64,000 nucleotides of DNA. It comes from an uncultured Armatimonadetes bacterium (lineage in GTDB: Bacteria; Armatimonadota; Hebobacteria; Hebobacterales; Hebobacteraceae). This document shows, in pieces, positions 1,448 to 34,879 of the stretch. Where the stretch lies: contig OY970296.1 of assembly GCA_963716175.1 (NCBI GenBank), positions 1,248,001-1,312,000 of the forward strand, read 5' to 3'. The first letter of the stretch is position 1, and each line of letters opens with the position of its first letter. The notes beneath the pieces are model-generated. The model was not told the DNA's origin. It searched no databases and was given only the letters and a program-made list of their open reading frames with translations. The translations under genes were made by a program, and so were the position numbers.

Positions 1448-4634
<3,187 letters not shown>

Positions 4635-28388: not shown

Positions 28389-29610
28389 GTGGCGAGAGTG
28401 CACAGCGTTGATTTCGAGCAAGTGAAGGCCTGCATAGACGTGCCCAGTGAGGCCGAGCGGTTGCTCGCAAAGAGCGAGAAGGAGATCAGCTTCAGCCTCA
28501 ACCTGATCCTCTATCCCGAGGGGCTAGTGGAGACTGATGCCTATGTCGTCTATCACAACACCGCGCGGACCGGCCAAGGGGGGAGTGCGGATCTGGCCCA
28601 CGGTCACCCTAGAACACACCCGGGAGCTGGCCGAGCTGATGACCTACAAGACGGCGCTGGTGGGAGTGCCGTTCGGGGGCGGGAAGTCGGGGATCCGGCT
28701 GGATCCCGACGAGTTCCCGGTCGCAAATAAGACTGCGCTGATCAAAGAATACGTGCACATGATCAAGGAGGAGCTGATGTCCGGTGCCTATGTCCCGGCC
28801 CCGGACCTGGGCAGCACGCCCTCGGATATGGCCGTGATCTACGGGGAGACGCATATCCCCGAGTCGGTCACCGGCAAACCTCCCCGGGTGGGCGGCCTGC
28901 CCGGCCGGCGCGAGTCAACCGGGTACGGGGTGACCCACATCGCGGCTCTCTCCTGCCAGGCTTTTCTCGGGGGAGCGATCGAGGGCAAGCGGGTGGCGGT
29001 GCAGGGATTCGGCAATGTGGGGGAATGGACGTGCCGTTTCCTGCGGGACCGGGGGGCGAAGGTCGTGGCGGTATCCGACATCACCGGCGGGGTCTACTGC
29101 GACACGGGCATACCCATCGATGCGGTGTGCGAGCACGTGCGGCAGGAGGGCGGCGTGGCCGGCTGCCAGGGAGAGGCGATCACGAATGAGCAACTGCTGG
29201 CCCTGCCGGTGGACATCCTGGTGCCGGCGGCGATCGAAGGTGTGATCCACCAGGGGAATGCGCAGGCGGTGTCCGCCCGGCTGATCGTGGAAGCGGCGAA
29301 CGGACCGATCACGCCGGAGGGCGACCGGATTCTCGATGCTCGCGGCATTCCCGTCGTGCCCGACATCCTCGCCAACAGCGGCGGGGTGACCGCCTCCTAT
29401 GTGGAGTGGCGCTCGGCGAAATCGGGGGTAATGACGAAGGCGGAGGAGACCTACGCCACAGTGGCGGAGCAGCTAGAGGCGGCCTTCCACCGGGTGCGGG
29501 AGATGGCGGAAACGCGCCACGTAAGAGACCGGACGGCGGCGCAGGCGGTGGCGGTGGAGGAGCTTATCGCCACCATGCGAGATCGGGGCTGGCTTCCGGC
29601 TGAGGGGTGA
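28389..29610 (+). CDS. Glu/Leu/Phe/Val dehydrogenase (frameshift at about 28565)
   Basis: HNTA|RGPAKGGVR, MTYK, GGGKSG, PAPD, VQGFGNVG, EAANGP, PDILANSGGV. Confidence 0.9.
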
Positions 29611-30973
29611 AGCTGAAGGTGCGGTCCGGCTGCTGGGCGGCCGCCGCCAGCACTTCCACCAGTTCGGGGTCGAAGCGGGAGCCGGCGGCCTGGCGCAGCC
29701 GGGAGAGCGCCTGGGGGGAGCCAGCTAGCTCCAGGTAGGCGTCGGCTAGAGCCAGCAGCCTCGCCCCCAGCGGAATCTGGTGCTGGCGTAGCCCCTCCGG
29801 GTAGCCCAGCCCATCCCAGCGCTCGTGGTGAGCCCCCACCATCTGGGCGGCTGGCCTCAGAAAGCGAACCGGCGCCAGGATCTGAGCCCCCAGCTGGGGG
29901 TGGAGCCGCAGGGGCTCCAGCTCCCCCGAGAACAGGTCCTGGTCCCCGGGCAACAGCTCCCCGGGCACCCCCACTTTGCCAATGTCGTGCAGGTAGCCGG
30001 CATAGCGAATCTGCTCCACCTGGTCGGGGGCCAGGTCCAACACCTGCGCCATCGCCGCCGCCACCGCCGCCACCCGCTCCCCATGGCTGGCCTCCAGCGA
30101 GCGACCCTCCAGCTTCGCCTCCATCACCGCCCCCAGGGTGCGCAGGCTCTGGGCGTAGACCTGCCGCAGATGCCCCTGCAGCCGGTAGCCATAGTAGAGC
30201 AGCCCGGAAGGAATCAGCGTCACCACCCCCAGCAACAAAGCCCCCCGGGAGCTGGAAGCCCCCACCGCCTCCCCGGTCAACTGCCACCGGCTCTGATAGA
30301 GCAGAGCCAGCAGCAGCCCCACCGAAGCCAACGCCCCATCCAGAGCCAGCATGGGCCCCAGGCTGGCCCGCAGCCGCCGCCAGGTCAAAGGCCACAGCCC
30401 CGCCCCCGCCCGCCGGGGCCGCTCCAGAGCCACCGCCACCGATACCCAGCCGGTCTCCAACAGCCACAGACACACCACCGCCCCCACCACCGCCACCACA
30501 TGCACCCCCAGCTCCACCCGCCCCGGCACCCCGCCCAACTCCTGGTACACCCACCCCGCAGCCAGCAGCGACAGCACACTGTGGGCGGCATTGAAGCTGG
30601 AGCGCACCACCGGGCTCCGCCGCACCATCCCCTCCGACCACACCGCCGCCAACGCCGCCACACAGGCCGTGGGCCCCGCCCCCAGCACCAACAGCCCCGC
30701 AAAGAACACCGCAAAGCTGGCCGCCGCTCCCCCTCCCCCAGCCAGCGGCACCACCATCAGGTCCAGCACCCCAGCCAACCCAATGAACAATGCCAGCTCC
30801 CAGATCCCCAGATCCACCGCCTGCCACCGGCTCGCCGCCCACACCAGCCCCACCGCCCCCAACCCAATCACCCCCACCACGTATCCCTCCAACCACCCCC
30901 ACCCCCGCCCCACCCGCGCAGCGGCAGCCGACGGAGGTGCGAGGACGGCCTTCGACTCCCTCGGGATCATCAC
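29564..30973 (-). CDS. Membrane-anchored HD-GYP domain protein (C-terminal motifs degenerate)
   Basis: multi-TM N-terminus, LHDIGK, HHERWDGLGYP. Confidence 0.85.
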   Translation of the reverse strand: MMIPRESKAVLAPPSAAAARVGRGWGWLEGYVVGVIGLGAVGLVWAASRWQAVDLGIWELALFIGLAGVLDLMVVPLAGGGGAAASFAVFFAGLLVLGAGPTACVAALAAVWSEGMVRRSPVVRSSFNAAHSVLSLLAAGWVYQELGGVPGRVELGVHVVAVVGAVVCLWLLETGWVSVAVALERPRRAGAGLWPLTWRRLRASLGPMLALDGALASVGLLLALLYQSRWQLTGEAVGASSSRGALLLGVVTLIPSGLLYYGYRLQGHLRQVYAQSLRTLGAVMEAKLEGRSLEASHGERVAAVAAAMAQVLDLAPDQVEQIRYAGYLHDIGKVGVPGELLPGDQDLFSGELEPLRLHPQLGAQILAPVRFLRPAAQMVGAHHERWDGLGYPEGLRQHQIPLGARLLALADAYLELAGSPQALSRLRQAAGSRFDPELVEVLAAAAQQPDRTFSFTPQPEASPDLAWWR

Positions 30974-32325
30974 ACACCTTCCCGCGTCTGGAGGGCGGCA
31001 GGAATGGGAGCGAGCTCCTCTGGCTCTTCCATCTCCAGTTCGCCTCGCGCCCAGAGCGCCGCCAGGGCCGCCACCACCTGTGGGTAGAACTGGGTGCCGG
31101 CGCAGCGCTCCAGTTCGGTGATGGCCTCCTCCGGGCTGCGCCGACGGTGGTAGGCGCGCTGCGCGGTCATGGCCTCGAAGGCGTCAGCCACACCCAGGAT
31201 CCGGGCCTCCAGAGGGATGGTGTCCCCGTGCTTGCCATTGGGATAGCCCTTGCCGTCCATCCGCTCGTGGTGGGCGCGAACGATGGCCGCCACCCGCCCT
31301 GGAGTATGGGGCAGGAACTCCATCTTCTCCGCCAGCAGGCCGCCCTCCACGGGGTGCTGGCGGATCACCTCCCATTCCTGCTCGGTGGGCTTGCCGGGCT
31401 TGCGCAGAATGGGCTCCCAGTCGCGGCGGACTTTGCCGATGTCGTGGAGCCGCCCGGCCCATTCCAGGATCTCCAAGCGAGGGGCGGAAAGGCCCAGCTC
31501 CCGGCCCAGCAGCACCGCATAGTGCGTCACTCGCTCGGAGTGCCTGCGGGTGTACTCATCATAGGCCTCCAGCGCCTCGGATAGCGCGTAGACTGTCTCG
31601 CGATGCACCTCCAGCATCTCCATCGCCCCCTGAAAGGCGTAGCGGGCCCCCAGCAGGGGAGCCACGAACAGAGCTACCGCGAAGACGCCAAGTCCCTTGG
31701 TCTGGTAGACCATGGCCATCAGCAGGCCGAAGGGGGCCAGCGCCAGGTAACGGGGGGCCAGCCAGCGGAAGCTCACCGCCCAGATGCCGAAGACGGGGCG
31801 GCGCTCCCAGGAGGCCATCCCGATGGCGATCAGCCAGGTGGAGATGACGAAGTAAGCGAGTGCACAGCAGAGCAGCGCCGGCCCGATCTCACCGAACCTC
31901 ACCGGGTGGGTGAGCGAGACATAGGCTCCACCCAGGGCCTGGTAGATCCAGCCGGCGCCAGCGAAGGAGAGCACCACCTGCCCCTGGTTGAACAACTGCC
32001 GCAGGCGCGGGCTCCGCCGGAACTCGATGGCGGCGCTGATCACCCCCACCCAGGCCGCCACTGCAGGCCCGAAGATCAGAAGACAAGCGTAGTCCACGGC
32101 AAAGCCGACCGTCGTGGTGGCCCCGCCGCGCCCTGGCAGGCGCACCGGGTACAGGACCATGAGCACGGTGAGGGCCAAGAAGAAACCGGCCTCCCAGGAC
32201 ACGGAGACCGGCGGATGGGGACTCCAGCCTCGCCACCAGGCTAGGCTCAGCCACGCCAGAAGAACATAGCCTGAGACTCCGACCACGACCATGAACGGCG
32301 AGTGTAGCTTCGATGGCTGCTGCAT
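30970..32325 (-). CDS. Membrane-anchored HD-GYP phosphodiesterase
   Basis: about 7 TM segments, DEYTRRHSERV, LHDIGK, HHERMDGKGYP, VADAFEAM. Confidence 0.9.
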   Translation of the reverse strand: MQQPSKLHSPFMVVVGVSGYVLLAWLSLAWWRGWSPHPPVSVSWEAGFFLALTVLMVLYPVRLPGRGGATTTVGFAVDYACLLIFGPAVAAWVGVISAAIEFRRSPRLRQLFNQGQVVLSFAGAGWIYQALGGAYVSLTHPVRFGEIGPALLCCALAYFVISTWLIAIGMASWERRPVFGIWAVSFRWLAPRYLALAPFGLLMAMVYQTKGLGVFAVALFVAPLLGARYAFQGAMEMLEVHRETVYALSEALEAYDEYTRRHSERVTHYAVLLGRELGLSAPRLEILEWAGRLHDIGKVRRDWEPILRKPGKPTEQEWEVIRQHPVEGGLLAEKMEFLPHTPGRVAAIVRAHHERMDGKGYPNGKHGDTIPLEARILGVADAFEAMTAQRAYHRRRSPEEAITELERCAGTQFYPQVVAALAALWARGELEMEEPEELAPIPAALQTREGV

Positions 32326-32404
32326 GGCTGCGACCTCTGCTCTGACGGTTGCCCAGATTAAGCGAGCCGAGGCCGTGTGCTAACAGCTCACGTCATGCGC
32401 TAGC

Positions 32405-32482
32405 TTACGGCCAACCAACACGAGCGCCGCCCGCCAACACGAGCGAGAGCAGCGCCAGCACAACCGAGATCCACTTGCCCAC
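32405..32482 (-). CDS. Small 25-aa peptide MGKWISVVLALLSLVLAGGARVGWP (putative signalling-peptide precursor)
   Basis: SD GGAGGTG 5 nt before GTG, TAA stop; n/h-region plus short tail; below the ORF track cutoff. Confidence 0.75.
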   Translation of the reverse strand: MGKWISVVLALLSLVLAGGARVGWP

Positions 32483-32654
32483 AGGAACACCTCCAGGAGC
32501 TAAAGCTCTGTCCGCCTTCCGCTACTTGGCAGACAGGCAACCGCTCCGCTGGGTGCTCACATCTTCCGTGGCCCCGGCTCGCGTCCGCTCAGTTGTCACA
32601 CCCGATTGCTCTCCGTCTTCTCCTTTGACCGGAAGCGCCCGGCGCGCGCCGGAT

Positions 32655-33323
32655 CTAGGCAGAGAGCGCCGGCAGGCGTCGGTTCAGCGCGTCCAGCACG
32701 GCCAGCGCCGCCGCCCTCCAGGGATCATCTCGCACTAGCGCCGACCCCAGCAACTCCTCTTCCTGCCTGCGCCCCAGCACGCGCACGGTGGCCATGACAC
32801 AGGGCCGGCCGTTCACCTGGGATCGGGTGAAGTCGCGCAGCTCCAGGCCGGGGATGGCATCGAGGCTGGTGGCGCGCAAGAACTCCTCCACCGCCGCCAG
32901 GCTGGCCCGGGCAACTAGCTGCTCCTGGTCGAGCTGGGAGCCGACGGGCATGGAGGCGGCGCCGGTGTAGCTGTCATCACCGCGGCCCACCGAGACTCGC
33001 GCCCGCGCGGTGGTGCGGTCAATGGAGTAATCAATGCTTAGGAACTTGAGACGAGCTTCCACCACCGGTTCGGCTGGGTTTGAGCCCCGGACCTGGGCGA
33101 TGCTGATCTTGCGGTGGTCTACCCGGGTCCCGAGGTCGGAGAAGAGAGCGGATTCGATATCACGTCCCAACTGCTTGGGATGCCGACTCTGGTCGGCGAC
33201 CACGTGGATCTCGATGATATCACCGCGGTTATCGGTCACCACCCGCGCCGACAGCACGCCCCGCAGGCGTGTGATGGTAGCCTCCGCATCCGCAACGGCA
33301 GCCCGATTCTGCAGGTCACCCAT
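32655..33323 (-). CDS. Hypothetical protein with LeuA allosteric-domain-like C-terminus
   Basis: GVLSARVV..EIHVVA..PKQLGRDIESAL; C-terminal DPWRAAALAVLDALNR; SD GGAGG. Confidence 0.7.
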   Translation of the reverse strand: MGDLQNRAAVADAEATITRLRGVLSARVVTDNRGDIIEIHVVADQSRHPKQLGRDIESALFSDLGTRVDHRKISIAQVRGSNPAEPVVEARLKFLSIDYSIDRTTARARVSVGRGDDSYTGAASMPVGSQLDQEQLVARASLAAVEEFLRATSLDAIPGLELRDFTRSQVNGRPCVMATVRVLGRRQEEELLGSALVRDDPWRAAALAVLDALNRRLPALSA

Positions 33324-33454
33324 GTGGCCAAGCCCTCCCTTAGCCGCGAGTCTGGGCCTACCCGACGCGAAACCGGATGCGTCCCGCAGGGGGCGACGGG
33401 CGTCATCACAGCTCAAGCTAGCAGCACGCAGGCTTTCCAGCCCGACCAACCGCG

Positions 33455-33483
33455 ATGATAGCAGGGACCGGGACGGGTGTCAA
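33455..33483 (-). promoter_or_regulatory. sigma70 promoter of the peptide/HD-GYP operon
   Basis: minus strand TTGACA-17 bp-(TGC)TATCAT. Confidence 0.75.
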
Positions 33484-33612
33484 GGACCGCTTGACCCCGC
33501 TGGCGGACAGCAAGGGTTTGGTGGGGCGCTGACCAGGCGGCTTGGGGCAAGCAGATCACGGGGGCGGGAAGAGGCCGGGCGCCGAGCCGTCAGGCCGGGT
33601 CGGCAGCCAGCC

Positions 33613-33641
33613 TTGACAGTCACCTGGCCGAATGCTATCCT
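33613..33641 (+). promoter_or_regulatory. Divergent sigma70 promoter
   Basis: TTGACA-17 bp-(TGC)TATCCT. Confidence 0.7.
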
Positions 33642-33659
33642 CCGCCCCACCATGAGTGC

Positions 33660-33748
33660 GATCAGCAGGCACCAGTTTGGTCTGACAGTCAGGGCCCGAC
33701 TCATGTCCGGGTGCGAACTCGCGTGCCCGCAACTGGTGCCTGCTGATC
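33660..33748. repeat. Perfect 18-bp inverted repeat enclosing 53 nt
   Basis: gatcagcaggcaccagtt / aactggtgcctgctgatc. Confidence 0.85.
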
Positions 33749-33829
33749 CGCCACCATAGTTTCCCAGCCTAGAGAGCCGATCAGGCGAGACCGCAGGCAG
33801 CTTTGGCAGGCCTGCGGTCTCTGGTTTCT

Positions 33830-33853
33830 GGGCAGGTCGCGGACCTGCCCTAC
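33830..33853 (-). repeat. GTAG-REP hairpin
   Basis: gggcaggtcgcggacctgccctac. Confidence 0.8.
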
Positions 33854-33871
33854 TGGGAAGGAGGAAAGCTG

Positions 33872-34879
33872 ATGAGCGAGGCGCGAGTGCGGTTGAGGCC
33901 GATCACGGAGGCCGATCTGCCGGACTACGTGGTGTGGCTGAACGACCCGGAGGTGACGCAGTTCATGGCCGCGGAGGCTGGGAACTACACGCTCGAGAGA
34001 GAGCGGGAGTGGCTCGCGCGCATCTCTGACCCCGAGTGCCGTGAGCGCCACTGGGCTATCGAACTGGATGGGCGGCATATCGGCAACTGCGCGCTGATGC
34101 CTGACTCGGCCGGGCAGACCGCCGGGTTCGGGATCATGATCGGTGATAAGAGGGCCTGGAACAAGGGCTACGGCACGGCGGCCCTGCAGCAGGTGCTGCG
34201 GATCGGGTTCCAGGAGATGGGGCTGCACCGGATTCACCTGGAGGCCTTCAGCGGCAACGCCCGCGGCATCCGCTGCTATCAGAAGTGCGGATTCCGGCAT
34301 GAGGGAGTGGCGCGCAAAGCGCGGCTCAAGCGGGGCGAGTGGGTGAATGTGGTGAGGATGGCGATGCTGCGCGAGGAATGGGAGGCCTGTAGGGCGGGCG
34401 TTCCCACGCCCGCCGGGGCGGGGTTCGGTGACCCCGCCCTACAGCAGATCGCAATCCGCAGCTACCGCGGGGCTGACTATGAGCAGGCAATCGCTTTGTG
34501 GGAGGCGGTAGGCTTCAACGTGAGAGGGAGGGGCGATAGCAGAGAGGCGATTCAGTACAAGCTGGCCAACGACCGCGGGCCGTTTCTGGTGGCCGAGATG
34601 AGCGGACACGTGGTAGGCACGGCGATGGCAAGCTGGGACGGGCGGTGGGCCTGGGTGTATCGGCTAGCGATAGACTCGGATCACCGGTGCAGAGGGATCG
34701 GTCGCCGGTTGATGGTGGAGGTGGAGCGCCGACTGGCCGCACTCGGCACGCAGCGCATCCACCTGGTCACGGGAGAGGAGAACGGTGTCGCCAGGGCGTT
34801 CTATGAGAGTCTGGGCTATCAGCCGGGGGACGACCTGGTGGTGATGCGGAAGACCCTGCCTGTGGGCGCAAGCAGGTAG
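33872..34879 (+). CDS. Tandem GNAT acetyltransferase (RimJ/RimL-like + RimI-like)
   Basis: WNKGYG..N.RGIRCYQKCGF and HRCRGIG..N.VARAFYESLGY; SD AAGGAGG. Confidence 0.9.
   Translation: MSEARVRLRPITEADLPDYVVWLNDPEVTQFMAAEAGNYTLEREREWLARISDPECRERHWAIELDGRHIGNCALMPDSAGQTAGFGIMIGDKRAWNKGYGTAALQQVLRIGFQEMGLHRIHLEAFSGNARGIRCYQKCGFRHEGVARKARLKRGEWVNVVRMAMLREEWEACRAGVPTPAGAGFGDPALQQIAIRSYRGADYEQAIALWEAVGFNVRGRGDSREAIQYKLANDRGPFLVAEMSGHVVGTAMASWDGRWAWVYRLAIDSDHRCRGIGRRLMVEVERRLAALGTQRIHLVTGEENGVARAFYESLGYQPGDDLVVMRKTLPVGASR
34389..34442. repeat. Inverted GTAG-REP doublet (54 bp) in frame in the GNAT linker
   Basis: gtagggcgggcgttcccacgcccgcc + ggggcggggttcggtgaccccgccctac. Confidence 0.85.

Follow-up and report, generated by a model that had tools for sequence, protein, structure and literature searches.

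A conserved, unannotated 25-codon reading frame inside a folded RNA upstream of tandem HD-GYP genes in Armatimonadota

The sequence analysed here is a stretch of 64,000 nucleotides (nt) from an uncultured Armatimonadetes bacterium (positions 1,248,001 to 1,312,000 of contig OY970296.1, GenBank assembly GCA_963716175.1), which we refer to as the window; all coordinates are positions in it unless a related locus is named. Our subject is a cassette on the minus strand of the window, in which a sigma-70-like promoter is followed by a gene for a protein that we denote P0001, by a structured RNA element that encloses an open reading frame (ORF) of 25 codons, and by two genes for membrane proteins with HD-GYP domains (Table 1). 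A preliminary description of the stretch had placed the promoter, the Shine-Dalgarno (SD) sequence of the short ORF and the two overlapping HD-GYP genes, and all of these are found where it put them. It had further proposed that the short ORF, which the automatic ORF track had missed, is a hidden gene for a peptide sensed by the HD-GYP proteins. The RNA structure around the ORF was overlooked in that account.

Table 1 Features of the cassette and its flanks. Positions are given in the window; lengths of encoded products are in amino acids (aa).
Feature	Position	Strand	Remarks
Sigma-70-like promoter TTGACA-17-TATCAT	33455-33483	-	11/12 matches; TG before the -10 hexamer
P0001 gene, 222 aa	32655-33323	-	N-terminal ferredoxin-like domain and LeuA/CimA-type regulatory domain
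Structured RNA element around the peptide ORF	32362-32582	-	Covarying helices
Helix P1, 5' arm GCGAGCCGGGGCC with 3' arm GGCCTCGGCTCGC	32582-32570 with 32374-32362	-	Arms pair with each other
Helix P3	32487-32556	-	GCACC (32556-32552) with GGTGT (32491-32487), the latter the 3' part of the SD
Invariant single-stranded AGCGGAGCGG	32541-32550	-	Belongs to the 3-6 AGCGR repeats of the leader
Hairpin P2, CTGTCTGC / GCGGACAG	32508-32536	-	Loop UAGCGGA
SD GGAGGTG of the micropeptide ORF	32494-32488	-	5 nt before GTG
Micropeptide gene, 25 aa, MGKWISVVLALLSLVLAGGARVGWP	32405-32482	-	GTG start; SD-led, conserved ORF
HD-GYP 1, 451 aa	30970-32325	-	Seven-helix MASE9-like membrane domain and HD_5
HD-GYP 2, 469 aa	29564-30973	-	Multi-helix N-terminal region and HD_5; start overlaps HD-GYP 1 stop (GTGA)
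Glu/Leu/Phe/Val dehydrogenase gene	28537-29610	+	Convergent with the cassette
Promoter-like TTGACA-17-TATCCT	33613-33641	+	Faces the GNAT gene
Double GNAT acetyltransferase gene	33803-34879	+	Divergent from the cassette

The short ORF alone is not beyond chance, since across 9.5 kb of this DNA, which has 66% G+C, 115 ORFs are 20 aa long or longer; it is conservation, and not existence, that establishes a gene. To look for conservation, we used HD-GYP 1 as the query against 41 related genomes and inspected the upstream regions of its ten best relatives. The same SD-led ORF was present in eight of the ten regions, with 25 aa in seven (MGKW..LAGGA.xxWP) and 31 aa in one; the other two had a GGDEF gene upstream and nothing, respectively. 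A back-translated pattern specific to the peptide form of the class occurred as a single copy in 14 of the 31 genomes of the class, with no match for the reversed pattern used as control, and had no match in the 370 other sampled genomes of the phylum. A fifteenth class genome (G015) carries the peptide with Trp4 replaced by Leu, giving 15 carriers in total. Over 185,579 species genomes, the pattern was found in 11 records of Armatimonadota or unclassified metagenome-assembled genomes (MAGs), three of them titled Candidatus Hebobacteria or Hebobacterum, and in every one of the 11 the peptide and its SD lie downstream of a P0001 homologue. The three remaining matches (an Actinomycetes MAG, a Woeseiaceae MAG and a Streptomyces) were set aside as chance sites because they have no SD, are not hydrophobic and lie inside longer ORFs (34 to more than 60 aa). 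Scanning metagenome contigs with P0001 gave 80 loci at 30-82% identity, and a hydrophobic ORF of 25-33 aa, nearly always SD-led, follows in 55 of the 57 loci that have at least 330 nt after the P0001 stop.

Frame, start and stop of the ORF are kept in every carrier examined. Among 14 sequences, variable columns are distributed 17/7/21 over the three codon positions, and codon differences are synonymous in 730 cases versus 458 non-synonymous ones. Arg21 is encoded by AGA, AGG, CGT and CGC, that is by both codon families, and Leu16 and Ala17 by four codons each. Mean pairwise identity over 17 diverse loci is 60.6% for the peptide, 33.3% for the membrane domain of HD-GYP 1 and 49.5% for its catalytic domain. 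In the whole genome there are 1304 GGAGG-led ORFs of 18-45 aa, of which 6 are hydrophobic with an N-terminal K or R, and among those 6 only the ORF of the window has the C-terminal pattern of the family. None of nine 25-aa forms of the peptide was found among about 15 billion predicted proteins; the 31-aa form is present in that collection, unnamed. Judged from these sequence comparisons, the 25-codon ORF is a real, unannotated protein-coding gene under selection at the protein level, and the earlier suggestion of a hidden gene is borne out in the 15 class genomes and the 55 metagenome loci.

The peptides share a simple layout. All 51 distinct peptides have K or R within the first seven residues, 47 have W within the last eight, and mean hydropathy ranges from 1.0 to 1.4. 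Two Trp residues, or their aromatic equivalents, are spaced by about 20 residues (W4...W24). The best conserved part is the hydrophobic core (LLALLSL, LAGGA), with an invariant small-residue stretch (LAGGA, SSGA, TAGA) inside the hydrophobic stretch, followed by a short aromatic-proline C-terminus whose tails vary at two positions within the class. Distant forms include MSRLFKVLLALAALAATAGAPFKVPPG, MKTLVKVLLALASLVLTSGAFGRFWPPP and MKKIVGFIVALISLILAGGAGFIWY. A lipoprotein signal was considered and rejected, as Cys stands in the xGA box of only a few members. We read the peptide as an uncleaved single-pass helix whose small face would pack on another membrane helix.

The preliminary description had offered two ligands for the HD-GYP membrane domains, the membrane-inserted peptide or its processed tail (RVGWP in the window). 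In the second form the peptide is a signal peptide, a cut after G-G-A sets free a W/P-rich tail of 5-9 residues, and the membrane domains detect this tail on the outer side, which would put c-di-GMP under quorum-type control. A secreted pheromone of this kind would agree with the n-h-c layout, in which small residues occupy positions -3 and -1 in 46 of the 51 peptides, with the aromatic, proline-rich tails and their two variable positions, and with the linkage of the peptide to membrane sensor genes. ComS and SHP precursors of streptococci are 17-25 aa long, begin with basic residues, continue as a hydrophobic stretch and carry their active part, which is aromatic, at the C-terminus; their genes adjoin a receptor gene. 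In size and shape our peptide recalls them, including its place beside a presumed receptor gene, as in the ComS/SHP-Rgg/ComR systems. However, Pro directly after a cleavage site blocks signal peptidase I, and when the list of the 51 peptides was read by eye, Pro directly followed the small-G-A site in six to seven of them (tails PFKVPPG, PWSIWPPK, PGRFWPPP, PWRWPWPDG and PFKWPP; also AGL-PFRIPPPTSP). Cleavage after xGA is therefore unlikely as a trait of the family. The core is better conserved than the tail, in contrast to ComS/SHP, and the tail is almost identical across genera, unlike a divergence driven by specificity. A core that is the best conserved part, in a peptide that as a whole is more conserved than the HD-GYP 1 domains, is likewise not what one expects of an ordinary signal peptide or of a pheromone that evolves fast. 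The outside loops of MASE9 domains are very short, both according to the paper that defined them (bioRxiv 10.1101/2021.11.05.467447) and in our model of HD-GYP 1. Pfam scans of the window and of 34 and 18 related loci showed no exporter or processing gene in the cassette; the neighbours have only HD/HD_5, MASE9, DUF5317 and rubredoxin-like domains, and kinase, AgrB and RRNPP proteins are absent. The statement that the locus has neither kinase nor AgrB is thus confirmed and extends to RRNPP, and the cassette differs from ComS/SHP, Agr and Phr systems in having no RRNPP/tetratricopeptide receptor, AgrB, ABC exporter or kinase. We consider a secreted pheromone, and with it a released tail as ligand, improbable.

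The intergenic DNA around the ORF is conserved beyond what coding can explain. Since in a plain MAFFT alignment of eight whole elements P1 was misaligned in the two most distant rows, and RNAalifold gave almost zero covariation, we used an alignment-free helix test and a leader-only alignment instead. The longest contiguous helix between the 5' and 3' sides (P1) has a median of 13 base pairs (bp) in 66 unique loci versus 8 in shuffles, of which 0.5% reach 13 bp. P1 occurs as 40 distinct arm pairs with compensatory changes, for example GCGAGCCGGGGCC/GGCCCCGGCTCGC, GAGCCAACGACG/CGTCGTTGGCTC, GGGCCGACGGC/GCCGTCGGCCC and AATAGGCCAAACCC/GGGTTTGGCCTATT. On the 5' side its arm falls after the P0001 stop and before the conserved core, on the 3' side the arm starts a median of 36 nt past the peptide stop, and P1 thus encloses a median of 235 nt (range 217-301 nt). 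RNAduplex over long flanks gave -64.9 for real versus -55.4 for cross-locus pairs, a difference diluted by spurious pairing. Folding the window's element as one sequence gave z = -1.4, an uninformative value in DNA of 66% G+C.

In the leader alignment the core AGCGRAGCGG is invariant, and the 66 leaders have on average 4.0 copies of AGCGR (3-6) versus 0.5 in shuffles. All eight pairs of P2 are changed on both sides somewhere in the family, 92.5% of its cells are paired, and the family loop is NAGCGR. For P3, in one register, 77% of cells are paired and two of five pairs change on both sides; the stretch of 5-7 nt that precedes the core pairs with the 3' part of the SD, by clade as ACACC/GGTGT, TCAACCC/GGGTTGA, ACCTTC/GAAGGT or CCTCT/AGAGG. 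P2 and P3 together have 86.5% of cells paired, a share that drops to 35-50% once the 3' partners are shifted. P1 and P2 are genuine helices. The element as a whole has covarying helices together with conserved unpaired nucleotides (the AGCGRAG and AGCG columns), by which it classes, on comparative sequence grounds, as a structured cis-regulatory RNA. A covariance model of the leader had one match per genome, at this locus only, in 15 of the 31 class genomes; a further match elsewhere in genome G027 (E 0.0076) was taken as noise. Rfam 15 had no match to the element in positions 29000-34500 of the window (E<=1) or in five diverse loci (E<=0.5), and an sR39 match inside HD-GYP 1 (E 0.048) was likewise taken as noise.

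Two alternatives are suggested by an ORF placed in such a fold. The first is an arrest peptide acting in cis, with the ribosome stalling at W-P(-P)-stop, perhaps together with a small ligand as in TnaC, so that P1-P3 are remodelled and HD-GYP expression is controlled; once released, the peptide would have no further function. TnaC, SecM and MifM are regulatory arrest peptides of this sort, encoded by short ORFs upstream of the genes they regulate, and our peptide resembles them in its upstream position, its Trp and terminal Pro-stop or PP and its structured mRNA: Pro is the last residue in 41 of the 51 distinct peptides, and near the end WP occurs in 43 and PP in 17. A chain of 25-33 aa would also sit wholly in the exit tunnel at termination. 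On the other hand, the entire hydrophobic N-terminal two thirds of the peptide, a helix-like body, are conserved, and not the last residues alone. The peptide gene is intact in two genomes (G006 and G015) where no HD-GYP gene follows it, and the 3' arm of P1 lies beyond the reach of a terminating ribosome in all but one of 63 loci. Arrest in cis thus appears quite unlikely to us.

The second alternative is a type I toxin-like or dual-function RNA, in which the folded mRNA hides the SD of a membrane-damaging peptide under antisense or processing control. In the mRNAs of hok/sok, aapA1/isoA1 and tisB the distant 5' and 3' sides form a helix, the SD is concealed and the product is a small hydrophobic peptide, and the closing helix, covered SD and hydrophobic peptide of 25-30 aa found here resemble them. 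A wetland RNA library has a short contig that covers just this element (165 nt, equal to 32387-32551 of the window with 2 mismatches), eight further contigs of relatives fall on the ORF and leader, and no contig of the strain of the 165-nt contig covers the flanking genes. This pattern hints weakly at expression, which would favour the micropeptide account as well, and at an RNA that is discrete and abundant. Of the public runs, just two hold small parts of the stretch (shares 0.10 and 0.04), all as contigs without strand or ends. Type I toxins, however, are usually multi-copy and poorly conserved, whereas the element occurs once per genome in strict synteny and is conserved in sequence, with its neighbours, across two phyla, and positions 29000-34500 contain no promoter-like site on the opposite strand save the one at 33613, which faces the GNAT gene. 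A toxin of this type is very improbable.

The gene upstream of the RNA was described earlier as LeuA-regulatory-like. P0001 has no family in Pfam at E<=0.01 or in NCBIfam, and its match to LeuA_dimer (PF08502) is weak (E 0.07, 13.5 bits versus a cut-off of 24.9). The label stands nonetheless: in the predicted model (predicted local distance difference test, pLDDT, 91), which consists of a generic ferredoxin-like N-domain and a C-domain, residues 90-218 align with domain 3f6g_B of LiCMS at Z 9.1 (root mean square deviation 3.3, 109 residues aligned) and with 3fig_A at Z 7.3, Foldseek matches LeuA at E 8e-5 to 5e-4, and one relative (P0230) has a precomputed PF08502 match. According to the model, the C-domain of P0001 has the fold of the LeuA/citramalate-synthase regulatory domain. 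Unlike LeuA and LiCMS, with which it shares this allosteric fold, P0001 has no catalytic TIM barrel and is fused to the ferredoxin-like domain. Relatives number 927 at E<=0.001, those named among the 120 listed are all 'hypothetical', and by the names of relatives the family occurs in Armatimonadota and Bacillota/Clostridia, including the cultured Clostridia Caldicoprobacter guelmensis and Alkalibaculum sp. Paralogous matches in the same genomes sit at the C-terminal ends of longer open frames (about 550-630 aa; in one case cut to 214 aa).

Downstream of the RNA, HD-GYP 1 and HD-GYP 2 match HD_5 at 3.7e-33 and 1.1e-29 and have the motifs HDIGK, HHERMDGKGYP and HHERWDGLGYP, with the HD, HHE, GYP and D columns invariant in relatives. 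By family and motif they are HD_5 proteins and are predicted to be phosphodiesterases of cyclic di-GMP (c-di-GMP). HD-GYP 1 scores 23.0 bits against MASE9 (PF20972), just below the gathering cut-off of 24.3, and several relatives from the corresponding cassettes of other loci score above it, at 26.2-42.1 bits. The model of HD-GYP 1 (pLDDT 85.7) has seven membrane helices, with two short ones (74-85 and 87-101) among the long ones. HD-GYP 1, with its MASE9-like domain, and its relatives resemble in architecture the MASE9-HD-GYP proteins TM1467 of Thermotoga maritima and HdgA of Streptomyces venezuelae, and two short helices are also what the definers of MASE9 describe (bioRxiv 10.1101/2021.11.05.467447).

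The gene after the peptide has an HD or HD_5 domain in 29 of 34 loci; the other five comprise two of the G006 type, one with DUF5317 and two at contig ends. The tandem pair is conserved in relatives: a second HD_5 gene comes next in 14 of 18 loci and DUF5317 in two, the second gene encoding a membrane protein in the clade of the window and, in other clades, a soluble protein of about 230 aa. A cassette of four parts (a P0001-type protein, the RNA with its peptide, a MASE9-type HD-GYP protein, and a second HD-GYP or DUF5317 protein) is conserved in Armatimonadota and some Clostridia, and one locus of the Clostridia type (L137) carries it whole. The placement of a peptide gene before multi-helix HD-GYP genes therefore holds over a large evolutionary distance.

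Variation among the loci takes several forms. In G006 a convergent dehydrogenase gene (L045 1969-3177) directly follows the peptide gene and marks the site where the HD-GYP pair was lost; the relocated pair lies on another contig (C372, L007 1-634) behind a GGDEF-type gene (AGDEF), without peptide or leader. In G015 a DUF5317 gene directly follows the peptide. DUF5317 membrane proteins were seen at L057 594-1208 (minus strand), L106 5753-6313 and L137 5728-6270, after HD-GYP genes or, in G015, after the peptide; a literature search for the term DUF5317 found no paper using it. In two relatives a single frame of 875-915 aa follows the peptide (L062 4453-7197 and L083 1610-4234); the former has two HD_5 stretches, as if the HD-GYP genes were fused, and the latter one, near the C-terminus. 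In the MSRLFK-type clade (L104, L112, L118, L126) the first HD-GYP protein has a rubredoxin-like (RUBY_RBDX) segment after its HD domain. In all three genomes of one genus (G010, G013, G014; L027-L029), the contigs stop 200-340 nt past the peptide start, which points to a repeat, or to a fault of assembly, where the tandem HD-GYP genes begin. In one metagenome contig (L106), positions 2124-2499 (plus strand), which lie upstream of the cassette, match the cspA thermoregulator RNA at 50.7 bits versus a gathering cut-off of 78.

These counts divide the earlier pairing of peptide and HD-GYP proteins. Its link to membrane HD-GYP genes stands, and the tightest partner of the peptide is the upstream LeuA-like gene, which lies directly upstream of it in 15 of 15 class genomes and accompanies it in 55 of 57 metagenome loci. 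Because this pair is the invariant core, the peptide might serve the upstream protein rather than the HD-GYP proteins. P0001 would then bind the AGCGR repeats or helix P1 as a ligand-controlled RNA-binding regulator, or would be tethered or regulated by the peptide, with HD-GYP as one output of several. The genes that follow do vary (membrane HD-GYP, soluble HD-GYP, DUF5317 or none), the AGCGR repeats look like sites for an oligomeric binder (cf. TRAP, HutP), and P0001 has a domain of amino-acid-binding type together with Foldseek matches to double-stranded RNA-binding domains at probability 0.95-0.98. The TM-scores of those matches are low, though (0.14-0.23), no nucleic-acid-binding family in Pfam or NCBIfam matched P0001, the cytoplasmic part of the peptide, with 3-6 residues, is too short for an obvious contact, and an HD-GYP gene does follow in most loci. 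We regard this explanation as unlikely.

The account that we prefer, tentatively and with somewhat less than even confidence, is that of an uncleaved membrane micropeptide whose translation is gated by the leader RNA and which acts on the MASE9 domain of the HD-GYP protein. A folded leader with invariant unpaired purines sits upstream of the HD-GYP genes and its closing helix encloses the ORF; the fold, with its covered SD, suggests gated translation. The RNA would hold translation of the peptide low until a signal opens the fold. This signal could come from P0001 loaded with an amino-acid-like ligand, or from a small molecule that binds the RNA at its AGCGR core. The peptide would then enter the membrane uncleaved, with its basic N-terminus in the cytoplasm, a helix of about 20 residues between Trp4 and Trp24 bearing the LAGGA small face, and an aromatic-proline end. 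There it would tune the MASE9-type HD-GYP phosphodiesterase or phosphodiesterases, and hence c-di-GMP breakdown, as MgrB tunes PhoQ. We infer membrane insertion, translation gating, the identity of the signal and the target from the features above. That the inserted peptide, the other ligand named in the preliminary description, would bind and act on the HD-GYP membrane domain is our best guess. When the membrane domain of G017 (residues 1-295) and its 31-aa peptide, each as a 17-row alignment, were given to complex prediction, the scores were 0.10 and 0.16 versus a mark of 0.32, which speaks neither for nor against binding. In G006, and on related contigs, the peptide gene has stayed intact although the HD-GYP pair is no longer beside it, and this speaks for action in trans over a pure leader function. 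The definers of MASE9 propose, in the part of their paper that was available, a ligand bound inside the membrane and name none (bioRxiv 10.1101/2021.11.05.467447).

Several observations weigh against the micropeptide account. The peptide is tied more strictly to the P0001 gene than to HD-GYP, and G006 and G015 keep P0001 and the peptide without an adjacent HD-GYP gene. The W-P-stop and WPP-stop ends (Pro-terminal in 41 of the 51) resemble ribosome-arrest motifs. In one locus (L136) the peptide MNTVSKMIKTLSSAINGCALAHFFPPD, about 190-270 nt after the P0001 stop, is far less hydrophobic and keeps an FFPPD end, a variant that fits a nascent-chain role, and with it the arrest alternative, better than a membrane role. 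The alignment-free test gives P3 a mean of 5.1 bp versus 4.1-4.3 in controls, which is moderate support for the helix over the SD. Finally, some of the RNA-library contigs may stem from DNA, and the most conserved DNA is also where relatives map best.

Small membrane proteins that modulate sensors are known from MgrB-PhoQ, SafA and PmrR. AcrZ is reported to modulate a transporter, AcrB, in a similar manner (PMC7267776). The micropeptide is like these in being a single-pass peptide of fewer than 50 aa encoded near a proposed polytopic target, on which it would act helix to helix. It differs in that the proposed target is a c-di-GMP phosphodiesterase and not a kinase or pump, in having no sequence relation to them, and in that its gene lies within a conserved folded RNA and has that of a LeuA-domain protein as its partner. 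From arrest peptides it differs in its conserved helix-like hydrophobic body, in its persistence without a downstream target and in that P1 lies mostly out of the reach of the ribosome. Unlike type I toxin mRNAs, it is single-copy, syntenic and conserved between phyla, with no antisense promoter-like site in positions 29000-34500.

As for the flanks, positions 29000-34500 contain 2 promoter-like sites versus 0.2 expected from shuffles and 4 terminator-like sites versus 1.8 expected. A terminator-like hairpin with a T-run lies at 32185-32212 (minus strand), about 115 nt into the coding region of HD-GYP 1. A separate sigma-70 promoter for the peptide was considered and rejected, as TTGACA precedes P1 in three relatives and, by eye, the -10 hexamer is absent. 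An ORF of 199 aa on the minus strand (33701-34300) overlaps the GNAT gene, has no family and is probably no gene. The leucine-type dehydrogenase that adjoins the cassette with its LeuA-regulatory-domain protein may or may not be there by chance.

In a broader form, which we hold possible though doubtful, the locus would be a peptide-coding riboregulator that senses a metabolite, through its AGCGR core or through P0001, and frees a micropeptide serving as intramembrane ligand or subunit of MASE9. In the main text of the MASE9 paper the terms 'small ORF', 'peptide' and 'DUF5317' have 0 occurrences each (bioRxiv 10.1101/2021.11.05.467447), and a literature search with supplementary files outside its scope found neither the peptide nor the RNA nor the cassette described. 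The locus adds three unnamed families, none of them matched by Pfam, NCBIfam or Rfam: a peptide of 25-33 aa, an RNA of about 235 nt and a LeuA-domain protein of about 220 aa. Since relatives of P0001 occur in cultured Clostridia, bench work may be possible there, given that the cassette is confirmed in them. To our knowledge, most HD-GYP and GGDEF/EAL enzymes have membrane 'MASE' domains whose signals are not known, and a conserved micropeptide encoded before MASE9-type HD-GYP genes is a concrete, testable candidate partner for one of them. If the broader form were true, metabolic state would control c-di-GMP hydrolysis with no kinase in between, and the micropeptide would give the first micropeptide-controlled c-di-GMP enzyme and a first clue to what MASE domains sense.

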